Part shown: positions 1 to 3,020 of the stretch, piece by piece
Layout: each line of letters opens with the position of its first letter
Position numbering within the stretch: the first letter of the stretch is position 1
Assembly (NCBI GenBank): GCA_047947115.1
Contig: CP170459.1
Coordinates: forward strand, 5,600,001 to 5,664,000
Direction: 5' to 3'
Length of the DNA stretch: 64,000 nucleotides
DNA from: Verrucomicrobiota bacterium
GTDB taxonomy: Bacteria; Verrucomicrobiota; Verrucomicrobiia; Limisphaerales; AAA164-E04
Notes under the pieces: model-generated
The model's database searches: none
Told to the model about the DNA's origin: nothing
What the model saw: the letters and a program-made list of their open reading frames with translations, nothing else
Position numbers and translations under genes: made by a program

Positions 1-246
1 AAAGGTCAAACGGAAATGGATTGCTTCGGAAGGTTGTTCTTCGGCAATTTCCACACTACCACTTCCAATGATCTTTCCGTCCCACGCATAACTTTTACCG
101 TTATCCGCATAGGTCATTTGGCAATCAGGTTCACAAATCACCCAGGGAGACCACCGATTCCATTGATGAAAATCGCGAATGGTTTCATAGGCTTTATCAG
201 GAGAGACAGCTACGACGATCGATTTGTTTACAGCAATCTTTGGCAT
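1..246 (-). CDS. SRPBCC/polyketide cyclase-like protein (runs off the window start)
   Basis: Not in the ORF track. Manual translation from the ATG at 246 gives MPKIAVNKSIVVAVSPDKAYETIRDFHQWNRWSPWVICEPDC...YAWDGKIIGSG, a typical SRPBCC N-terminus. AAGGAAG lies upstream. Confidence 0.8.
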   Translation of the reverse strand, partial: MPKIAVNKSIVVAVSPDKAYETIRDFHQWNRWSPWVICEPDCQMTYADNGKSYAWDGKIIGSGSVEIAEEQPSEAIHFRLTF

Positions 247-362
247 AAGAACTTCCTTTTTCTTTACAGTTCATGATTTTTGATTGGGTCTCCTTTTGAC
301 GGGAGATCTTACCAATGAATGTGGCTTTGAACAGACCTATTGTTGGAATAAGGAAATACGAG

Positions 363-1698
363 AAGCTTCTGGCCTTGGTAGGGATGAGCTGCCGCTCGTC
401 CGTCGCTCAGCGTGGTGGTGTGCTTGAACCTTTATCACCCCCTCGCGTTATAGCTTGCGCCCGCGGCCCTGCGGCAGCAGGGCCCTACCGGAAGCATAGC
501 TTCTGGCGTTGGTAGGGATGAGCTGCCGCTCGTCCGTCGCTCAGCGTGGGGGCTTACTCGAACCTTTATCATCCCCTCGGCGTTACAGCATGCGCCCGCG
601 GCCCTGCGGCAGCAGGGCCCTACCGGAAGCAAAGCTTCTGGCCTTGGTAGGGATGAGCTGCAGCTCGTCCGTCGCTCGGCGTGGTGGTGTGGTTGAACCT
701 TTATCACCCCCTCGCGTTACAGCACGCGCCTGCGGCCCTGCGGCAGCAGGGCCCTACCGGAAGCAAAGCTTCTGGCCTTGGTAGGGATGAGCTGCAGCTC
801 GTCCGTCGCTCGGCGTGGTGGTGTGGTTGAACCTTTATCACCCCCTCGCGTTACAGCACGCGCCTGCGGCCCTGCGGCAGCAGGGCCCTACCGGAAGCAA
901 AGCTTCTGGCCTTGGTAGGGATGAGCTGCAGCTCGTCCGTCGCTCGGCGTGGTGGTGTGGTTGAACCTTTATCACCCCCTCGCGTTACAGCACGCGCCTG
1001 CGGCCCTGCGGCAGCAGGGCCCTACCGGAAGCAAAGCTTCTGGCGTTGGTAGGGATGAGCTGCCGCTCGTCCGTCGCTCGGCGTGGTGGGGTGCTCGAAC
1101 ATTTATCATCCCCTCGCGTTATAGCTTGCGCCTGCGGCCCTGCGGCAGCAGGGCCCTACCGGAAGCAAAGCTTCTGGCGTTGGTAGGGATGAGCTGCCGC
1201 TCGTCCGTCGCTCGGCGTGGTGGTGTGCTCGAACATTTATCATCCCCTCGCGTTATAGCTTGCGCCTGCGGCCCTGCGGCAGCAGGGCCCTACCGGAAGC
1301 AAAGCTTCTGGCCTTGGTAGGGATGAGCTGCCGCTCGTCCGTCGCTCGGCGTGGTGGTGTGCTCGAACATTTATCATCCCCTCGCGTTATAGCTTGCGCC
1401 TGCGGCCCTGCGGCAGCAGGGCCCTACCGGAAGCAAAGCTTCTGGCGTTGGTAGGGATGAGCTGCCGCTCGTCCGTCGCTCGGCGTTGTGGTGTGCTCGA
1501 ACATTTATCATCCCCTCGCGTTATAGCTTGCGCCTGCGGCCCTGCGGCAGCAGGGCCCTACCGGAAGCAAAGCTTCTGGCCTTGGTAGGGATGAGCTGCC
1601 GCTCGTCCGTCGCTCGGCGCGGTGGTGTGCTCGAACATTTATCATCCCCTCGCGTTATAGCTCGCGCCCGCGGCCCTGCGGCAGCAGGGCCCTACCGG
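363..1698. repeat. Tandem array of 10 x ~134 bp units of paired REP-like hairpins (BIME/REPIN-like)
   Basis: GGTAGGGATGAGCTG recurs at 377, 511, 646, 780, 914, 1048, 1182, 1316, 1450 and 1584. Each unit ends GGCCCTGCGGCAGCAGGGCCCTACC. Confidence 0.95.
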
Positions 1699-1700
1699 TA

Positions 1701-2894
1701 TCAATGTCCTACGTATCGGACTCGATAAATCTTGTTCATGGTGTCGTCGGTAAACAAAATCGATCCGTCAGGGGCTTGTTCACAATCTGTGGGACGACCA
1801 AGAATTTCTGTTCCGTCCTTCAGGAAGCTGACGATTTTTTGTTCACCGAATGGATGACCAAATTCGAACAGAATGCGAGACAGGCTATAGCCTACTTTCT
1901 GGGTGGCGTTCCATCCTCCTTTGAACGCTACAAATGCATCACCATGTGCTCCGGGAATACCGTCTCCTTCGTAAAACATCATGCCGTTCCCGGAGCAATG
2001 GGCAGGCATGACCCATTCCGGTATAACAGTTTTGGACGCCATTTCAATCAGGTCCGGATGATCCAGAAAATTGAGATTCGGCATGTTTTTACCCAAAATG
2101 TAAGGGTGTCCGTAAAAGCCGCCTTTGACGTAATGATTCAATTCAGCAGGCGGGTTGTGGTCGGTGATGGGCTGTCCGAACTTTGGGTTCTTCAACTCCA
2201 GGTTCATCGCCATGCGGTCGATATCATGATCCACGCCCCAGACTTCATCCGTACCAGGACGGATGCAAAGCTCTTCGGTATTACGAATGCCGGTGGCGAA
2301 GAGTTCCTTGCCACTTCCGTCCAGATTGAAGGTCCAGATCTTTTTGCGATCATTCTCCATGATCGGCTCATCCGTGGCATTGTCTTGATCGCCAACATGG
2401 GTGTAGATCACATCTTTGTGGATCAACAAAGCGCGCCATTTATGGCCACCACCAGTGATGGGCAACTGATCTTCTCCAATGACTTCAATAACTTCGTCCG
2501 CTTTGCCGTCATGGTCTTTGTCCCGAGATTTATAGATTCCCGTCATGTCGGCAAACCAAAGCCAGCCTTCGTAAAACTGCATACCTTGAAGGATTTTCCC
2601 TTTTTCATAACCTTCGACATACGTCGTCAGGCTCTCATAAACGCCGTCACCGTCTTTGTCCCGGCAGCTCTGAATCATGCCGTTGTTGGGCACACTGACG
2701 TAAAGGGTTCCCCTATCATCAAACTCCAGAAAGCGTGGCTTTTTGATGGTACTTTCCGCAACCGTCAATTCATAGCCATCACGCACCCAAACTCCATCGG
2801 GAATTTCCTGTGCGCCGATAGAAGATGCGGCATAGATGGACATTACCATCAGGGAGCTGGCGAAAACGTTGCTTCGATTTGAAGGAAGATTCAT
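1701..2894 (-). CDS. Secreted glucose/sorbosone dehydrogenase-like beta-propeller protein
   Basis: Signal peptide; motifs PRFLEF, GGGHKWR, FATGIRN, GGFYGHPY, AFKGGWN, GRPTD..QAPDGSILFTDD. Start chosen at MNLPS (alternative 2903). Confidence 0.85.
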   Translation of the reverse strand: MNLPSNRSNVFASSLMVMSIYAASSIGAQEIPDGVWVRDGYELTVAESTIKKPRFLEFDDRGTLYVSVPNNGMIQSCRDKDGDGVYESLTTYVEGYEKGKILQGMQFYEGWLWFADMTGIYKSRDKDHDGKADEVIEVIGEDQLPITGGGHKWRALLIHKDVIYTHVGDQDNATDEPIMENDRKKIWTFNLDGSGKELFATGIRNTEELCIRPGTDEVWGVDHDIDRMAMNLELKNPKFGQPITDHNPPAELNHYVKGGFYGHPYILGKNMPNLNFLDHPDLIEMASKTVIPEWVMPAHCSGNGMMFYEGDGIPGAHGDAFVAFKGGWNATQKVGYSLSRILFEFGHPFGEQKIVSFLKDGTEILGRPTDCEQAPDGSILFTDDTMNKIYRVRYVGH

Positions 2895-3020
2895 ACGGGC
2901 CATTGTAATAGCCTGAAAAATGAAATCAAGATCCAGAAACAGTCGAACGGACAATGATGTTGCGCATTGAGGCTGGCATGCCAAAATCAGGACAGATCGT
3001 TCAGGATAAGGAATCATCAG

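Follow-up and report, generated by a model that had tools for sequence, protein, structure and literature searches.

Positions 363 to 1,698 of the window, by which we mean the whole 64,000-nt stretch of verrucomicrobial DNA analysed here (contig CP170459.1 of assembly GCA_047947115.1, positions 5,600,001 to 5,664,000), consist of a tandem repeat whose units resemble pairs of REP hairpins. Does this array belong to a REP/BIME-type system, dispersed through the genome and served by a RAYT nuclease encoded elsewhere, as a sequence-only reading had proposed, or is it a local repeat or a series of structured RNAs?

Structure and surroundings of the array

The sole strong array that TRF found in the window has a period of 134 bp, 10.0 copies and 96% matches, in agreement with the ten units first read; the proposed unit length holds for the period, with unit 2 measuring 135 bp. 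Each unit is an inverted pair of two different GTAG-footed 8-bp hairpins, in the order REP-A (plus strand), 63-nt spacer, REP-B (minus strand) and 23-nt linker. The features of the locus are as follows.

363..1698, no strand: ten REP doublets repeated in tandem with a period of 134 bp, as a BIME-2-like array or tandem-REPIN cluster
378..401, plus strand: REP-A, copy 1, with GTAG foot, 8-bp stem including one T-G pair, and 4-nt loop
512, 647, 781, 915, 1049, 1183, 1317, 1451 and 1585, plus strand: starts of the remaining REP-A copies, with a TGCA loop in those at 647, 781 and 915
402..464, no strand: first internal spacer of a doublet, 63 nt
465..488, minus strand: REP-B, copy 1, with GTAG foot, perfect 8-bp stem and TGCC loop
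623, 757, 891, 1025, 1159, 1293, 1427, 1561 and 1695, minus strand: ends of the remaining REP-B copies
488..506, plus strand: first of the hairpins that link the doublets, its stem of 8 bp including one G-T pair and its loop having 3 nt
1701..2906, minus strand: host gene upstream of the array, glucose/sorbosone-dehydrogenase-like (Pfam GSDH and DUF7133); its start codon is not fixed and the open frame extends to 3125
1..246, minus strand: host gene downstream of the array, SRPBCC/polyketide-cyclase-like (PF10604), truncated at the start of the window
G000:C1:5390959-5391420, minus strand, outside the window: cognate RAYT gene, 153 aa, HUH/Tyr, from the NCBIfam NF047646 search

The 20 REPs of the array match GTAG-GGnnnnGC-TGCY-GCnnnnCC with at most one mismatch (0.00 expected from 100 shuffles of the window) and stand at the positions and on the strands where hairpins A and B had been placed. 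GTAG lies directly 5' of the stem, and the REP length of 24 nt is within the 20-40 nt of the palindromes that define GTAG-family REPs. The idea that A and B share an 8-bp stem and a TGCC loop is right in outline, but the REP-A copies of units 3-5 carry TGCA and one stem pair of REP-A is T-G. Likewise, the AAA linker hairpin is present in nine full copies, but the loop of the first is ATA and the left end of the array retains only the right arm. Every doublet starts and ends with the same inverted 7-mer, and a long hairpin had been suggested as an alternative fold of the unit; such foot-to-foot pairing is predicted for the minus strand only, where its probability is 0.77 (DNA) or 0.60 (RNA), compared with 0.13 (DNA) or 0.08 (RNA) for the plus strand.

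Eighteen columns vary, and by sequence eight of the nine complete units differ from one another; variants cluster in blocks (units 3-5 and units 6-9), with an alternation of G,C,G,C at linker column 132 in units 6-9. The doublet spacers are 85-100% identical to one another, and in a BLAST search of the whole genome full-length copies of the 63-nt spacer were confined to the array. A CRISPR array was ruled out on this likeness of the spacers and on the flanking genes, which encode the dehydrogenase and the SRPBCC protein. These two genes are co-oriented on the minus strand, and the array between them lies in the 3' untranslated region of the dehydrogenase gene. Because the array starts 5 nt past a stop codon, the foot of the last REP-B beginning at that distance from the end of the dehydrogenase gene, it is probably transcribed.

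Near-identical DNA is present in marsh, estuary and seawater sequencing runs. Read depth over the spacer relative to the gene is 1.6-3x in run X1, 9-18x in X3 and 15-17x in X9, depth not being equal to copy number and so not counted as evidence. Contigs from three DNA runs leave the dehydrogenase gene and reach the last REP, extending 30 letters to the array side, 1 below the bridging threshold. The nearest relative has two units (see below), which would fit an assembly that had inflated a shorter array to ten. We consider such an artefact very improbable: eight of the nine complete units can be told apart, the genome is a single contig in which other multi-unit arrays are present, and contigs of other runs bear several of the same unit variants.

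The F1 family and its cognate RAYT

Using the above consensus (family F1) with at most two mismatches and a pairing filter, we scanned the closed 6.08-Mb single-contig genome and found 160 copies at 58 loci, as against none in a 6-mer block-shuffled control genome, so that the expected copies of the hairpins elsewhere in the genome do exist. The array, with its 20 REPs, is the largest F1 locus; 30 loci are single REPs, and six others are tandem with 6-14 REPs each. Inverted, feet-outward doublets number 55 and hold 110 of the 160 REPs, the remaining 50 lying outside doublets, and the two stems differ in all 55. Doublet length is 100-102 bp in 39 cases, 111-112 bp in the 10 of the array and longer in 6. 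Outside the array, 39 of 45 doublets have a spacer of 52-54 nt, whose sequence differs from locus to locus. Between F1 loci, the foot, the stem ends and the loop are constant, and spacers and linkers vary; when the foot was left free, 151 stem-loop cores were recovered, 124 of them with GTAG and 8 with GCAG. In a set gathered with no pairing filter, comprising 63 distinct sequences with 32 different left arms, pairing holds at 239 of the 252 free stem positions (mean 148 and maximum 169 in 2000 shuffles, a control that ignores the kinship of copies), with G-T pairs tolerated. The stems thus covary, as the claim that structure is kept over sequence implied. By a crude in-house gene caller, 53 of the 58 loci are extragenic, and gaps between convergent genes are enriched (17/53 F1 loci vs. 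451/2883 intergenic gaps; odds ratio 2.6, p 0.003).

The third hairpin, in the linker, is real at the array and is not family-wide. The linkers of 15 F1 loci fold with a mean of -3.2 kcal/mol, compared with -2.3 kcal/mol in shuffles (3 of 200 shuffles as low). Abutting hairpins of at least 5 bp, however, were found in only 7 of 81 B-type and 3 of 40 A-type contexts, counts not significant against shuffle maxima of 8 and 6, and the linker hairpin was rejected as a defining part of F1. In IMG/VR contigs (L085-L136) we observed 53 exact F1 matches in 52 stretches, two contigs having 5 copies each, and all four free stem positions are paired in 40 of the 53; these contigs may be proviruses or host DNA.

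We also considered whether the array is a template for ten structured non-coding RNAs of about 134 nt, with an RNA function unrelated to DNA mobility. The tolerance of G-T pairs in the stems and the probable transcription of an array lying 5 nt past a stop codon would fit this, as would the contigs of one RNA run that cover the array, which is no proof of transcription. On the other hand, an Rfam scan of positions 1-3000 gave zero matches at E up to 1, whole-unit folding is no better than in shuffles (z -1.0 to -1.7), and scans for promoter-like (sigma-70) and terminator-like sites returned 0 and 0. The constancy of foot, stem ends and loop between loci with varying spacers and linkers, and the association of the motif with one RAYT clade (below), also speak against structured RNAs, an alternative that found no support here and that we regard as highly unlikely.

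The nuclease that had been expected elsewhere in the genome, flanked by the same hairpins, was found as a single-copy gene 209 kb from the array (G000:C1:5390959-5391420). A genome search with Pfam PF01797 (Y1_Tnp) returned five Y1 genes, missing the cognate RAYT, and no F1 REPs lie within 5 kb of these five; the search with NF047646 gave two further genes, including the cognate RAYT, which scores 58.9 bits (cut-off 80). F1 REPs occur on both sides of the RAYT gene, with one doublet upstream and two downstream, and its stop codon TAG is the TAG of a GTAG foot. The A-type REPs nearest to the gene (L008:1380-1410 and 2040-2075) share an identical alteration, in which the 5' arm and the loop are lengthened and the standard hairpin is lost.

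The catalytic motifs H69-L-H71 and Y125 are invariant in 10 of 10 aligned proteins. E. coli TnpA-REP (4ER8) is matched by phmmer at E 2.8e-6 and is the best Foldseek match (E 9.7e-7, TM 0.64) of the AlphaFold model (pLDDT 83), above the IS200/IS605 transposases. Residues F104, Q105, H110, H111 and R114 correspond to E. coli W94, Q95, E100, H101 and R104, a region named as the guide recogniser (PMC6006769); His110 takes the place of the guide-contacting Glu100 of E. coli, and the acidic residue is absent. Judged from its sequence, the cognate protein appears RAYT-like in its working, yet we assign it neither to the NF047646 equivalog nor to the described RAYT groups 2 and 3. Residue 134 is Trp in the assembly (L008:1533, G000:C1:5391021) and Gly in 9 of 10 aligned proteins, the Trp being either a strain allele or an assembly error; since contigs from three other DNA runs read Gly at this position, the population allele looks intact. 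One RNA-run contig of 136 bp falls on the RAYT gene and is not counted as expression.

The same genome carries other REP and Y1 loci. A second GTAG REP family, F2 (GTAG-CCGCnnnn-GCMA-nnnnGTGG), has 133 copies at 44 loci (0 in the control), many of which are head-to-tail arrays of single REPs, and it flanks its own RAYT-like gene (L004, G000:C1:2361010-2361822), one of the five PF01797 genes. A 351-aa Y1 protein (L003, G000:C1:774604-777927) is TIRYT-like, with 31-bp terminal inverted repeats on its flanks and its 3' end duplicated over 495 bp. Another short RAYT-like gene, the third of this genome (L006, G000:C1:1508055-1508432) has an early TAG relative to its homologues and other repeated segments in its flanks; no GTAG hairpin was detected near it. 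An IS200-like tnpA that apparently ends early (L001:1165-1473 and 1921-1950) has repeated palindromic segments of another type on its flanks.

Distribution in relatives and history of the array site

The exact F1 motif is present in 12 of the 41 genomes searched, which are kin, and in 7 of them at 13 or more copies. RAYTs of at least 60% identity were found in 4 of the 41, each with 21-113 exact F1 copies, and in 0 of the 29 motif-free genomes. With the cognate RAYT as query, no close RAYT was found in G001, G024 and G039, drafts of 220-640 contigs that bear 13-53 exact F1 copies; other RAYT-like genes are listed for these three and were not placed on the tree. In a class-wide sample, matches at E 1e-30 or better occur in 35 of 251 genomes, and loci were obtained for 30 of the 40 matches. 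We built a tree of 42 proteins from the class-sample loci, 10 from the 41-genome search (9 of them new), the named relative and two RAYT-like genes of the same genome. In this tree, 15 RAYTs form a clade (support 98/94), and the F1 motif lies within -600/+500 nt of 14 of the 15; the locus of the sole motif-less member is cut by a contig end. Two members of the clade have a TGCG-loop variant. The nearest named RAYT, from an uncultured Verrucomicrobiae genome, is 70% identical, has the REP upstream and is nested in the clade, which makes Verrucomicrobiae the probable lineage of the host. The His-His motif extends beyond the clade to nine sister proteins, with no such REP detected nearby.

Given the inverted 7-mer at both ends of each doublet, one could view the doublet as a MITE bounded by 7-bp terminal inverted repeats and mobilised by a DDE transposase, its link to the HUH gene being incidental. 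This is hardly credible, as 50 of the 160 REPs are not part of a doublet of this kind, no doublet has two like halves, either half folds alone with covarying stems, and the HUH gene is flanked by F1 REPs in 14 of 15 clade members. Dispersal, covariation and a flanked RAYT were all positive for the REP/BIME-type system first proposed.

Beyond the clade, hairpin-like repeats with a GGAG foot were seen beside RAYTs at 7 loci (5 well-paired) among 27 tree rows. In L066, L067, L081, L082 and L083, all with paired stems, the RAYTs are flanked by GG...CC hairpins; L069 and L074 are also GGAG-footed, with a loop that is read differently and 2 mismatches in the 8-bp frame. Four non-clade RAYTs that matched a loose F1 motif were rejected, having on inspection a GGAG foot and a different loop. 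The GGAG-flanked RAYTs are 39-52% identical to the cognate RAYT, and most have W-Q-x-D/N-x-W-D in the guide-contact region; the GGAG-GG foot is absent from Table S1 of PMC6006769. We tentatively propose, at rather less than an even chance, that the F1 REP is the sign of a RAYT radiation not yet described, in which the guide is read otherwise than by E. coli TnpA-REP and which includes a switch from GTAG to GGAG. On this reading, GTAG-footed REPs with a TGCY loop would pair with the clade motif F/W-Q-x-x-G/S-F-H-H-R-L-R (His for Glu100), and GGAG-footed hairpins of the same build would pair with related lineages having mostly W-Q-x-D/N-x-W-D-x-x-L-R.

For the array site itself, G001 is the informative genome. 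It belongs to the same genus, and its dehydrogenase is 93% identical. Between the same pair of genes it carries two decayed units, whose private spacer, linker (including the linker hairpin) and boundaries are those of the array. In six more distant genomes of the genus, the dehydrogenase site has neither REPs nor the SRPBCC neighbour, and none of the same-genus genomes offered an empty orthologous site framed by both genes. Because G001 shares the site, the spacer and the boundaries, and because the spacer is private to the locus, this comparison indicates that one doublet arrived before the split from G001 and that the unit number then changed in place, by gain to ten or by loss to two. The contrast of ten with two units is a single comparison with a draft that is 88% complete and in which no close RAYT was found.

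How the units multiplied is a separate matter. An old doublet could have expanded as a passive minisatellite by slippage or unequal crossing-over, with no RAYT action and no selected function; this explanation departs from the one we favour solely at the amplification step. It is in keeping with the block pattern of the variants, with column 132 alternating in units 6-9 as expected from a two-unit duplication, and with the G134W change in the RAYT of the assembly. However, at least six other F1 loci are tandem arrays of 6-14 REPs with a near-fixed doublet length, and the expansion is seen in the RAYT-bearing genome, whereas G001, subject to the limits just given, has two decayed units. We give the passive minisatellite a little less than an even chance.

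Proposed mechanism, known systems and significance

It is very probable that the array consists of ten tandem GTAG REP doublets of a genome-wide family, and that the RAYT 209 kb away likely binds, nicks and spreads these REPs. E. coli TnpA-REP binds the single-stranded hairpin with its GTAG, cuts at C|T and transfers the strand, and dispersal is described as followed by local amplification, with rolling-circle-like models for the second step (PMC3333891). By analogy, when the DNA is transiently single-stranded, each strand would present one REP hairpin with its GTAG guide. The RAYT would bind the hairpin, cut nearby C|T sites through a 5'-phosphotyrosine and rejoin the strands, and such cutting and rejoining, if it proceeds as in E. 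coli, would move doublets into new intergenic sites. Before the lineage of G001 split off, one doublet would have inserted 5 nt past the stop codon of the dehydrogenase gene; it would then have multiplied in place, either through rolling-circle-like extension primed by the RAYT or through slippage or unequal exchange brought about by the host. Between these two routes we see an even balance, as host recombination or slippage accounts for the block pattern equally well. Short perfect REPs are recognised via loop and stem (PMC8266576), which fits the fixed TGC loop of F1. As to the host, co-transcription of the array would be expected on the minus strand, and by comparison with the 3'-UTR stabiliser and partial terminator role described in a preprint for E. 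coli REP325 (10.64898/2026.03.23.713779), the array may, at about an even chance, stabilise the dehydrogenase mRNA and damp read-through into the SRPBCC gene.

The locus is similar to the E. coli BIME-2/REPtron (4ER8; PMC3333891) in its tandem inverted pairs of two different GTAG REPs, in the conservation of units within a locus, in a copy number that varies between relatives, and in a single RAYT gene flanked by the same elements and having the same fold (here predicted). It differs in that F1 has short 8-bp stems, a 4-nt loop and no bulge, whereas the E. coli enzyme needs a bulge (PMC3333891), and in that the RAYT, from a different lineage, is 22% identical to 4ER8 in the structural alignment, with F104 and H110 at W94 and E100. 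With the tandem REPINs of Pseudomonas fluorescens SBW25 (PMC3116915) it shares ordered repeats of near-identical doublets and flanks, and the presence in one genome of more than one REP group, every group lying beside a RAYT of its own (F1 and F2 in our case). The SBW25 maxima are four REPINs per cluster and 12 sequences in GI-GIII arrays (PMC3116915), compared with 20 REPs here; unlike in SBW25, all 55 F1 doublets are heterodimeric and the long doublet hairpin is only partly predicted.

GTAG REPs and their dimers are also on record in a verrucomicrobium, as GTAG-17, -18 and -19 of Opitutus terrae, in a paper that likewise describes heterodimer preference, tandem clusters and small spacer stem-loops (PMC3733652). 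None of six peptides that F1 would encode is among those listed for intragenic copies in supplement 3 of that paper, though F1 could conceivably still be one of its 24 GTAG families. Row 52 of Table S1 in Quentin et al. 2018 (PbraA01, subclass 2.2; PMC6006769) is of similar build, with a GTAG foot, a GG...GC stem and a short loop. The GC-TGCY-GC core is in no row of that table, whose 12 CTGCCG and 10 CTGCTG matches do not fit; the codes Oter and Caka have no match in it, and the word Verrucomicrobia appears nowhere in the main text. In a full-text literature search we found no paper devoted to verrucomicrobial RAYTs. Tandem heterodimeric arrays, spacer stem-loops, genomes with multiple REP-RAYT pairs and the GTAG REPs of Opitutus terrae are thus already in print in the sources cited; what appears to be new here is the REP sequence family, within the known type of REP/BIME system with a RAYT and absent from the literature searched.

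Three proteobacterial enzymes have been tested in vitro (PMC8266576), and the value of the present system is that of a clean new REP-RAYT example far from these three. It includes two REP families in one closed genome, each with its own RAYT, and a RAYT clade that follows one hairpin through at least ten families of one class. Testing would be no easier than in E. coli or Pseudomonas, because the host seems to have been recorded in metagenomes alone. The GGAG-footed relatives, if real, would extend the known guide sequences and are a more interesting lead than the array, though peripheral to it; the guide-switch series, if true, would be a natural test of how domesticated nucleases recognise the guide tetranucleotide and choose the cut site. 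The locus makes both the amplification of REP arrays and their role in the host testable, and the orthologous site with ten units in one genome and two in the other offers, if the reading is true, a ready test of RAYT-driven amplification.
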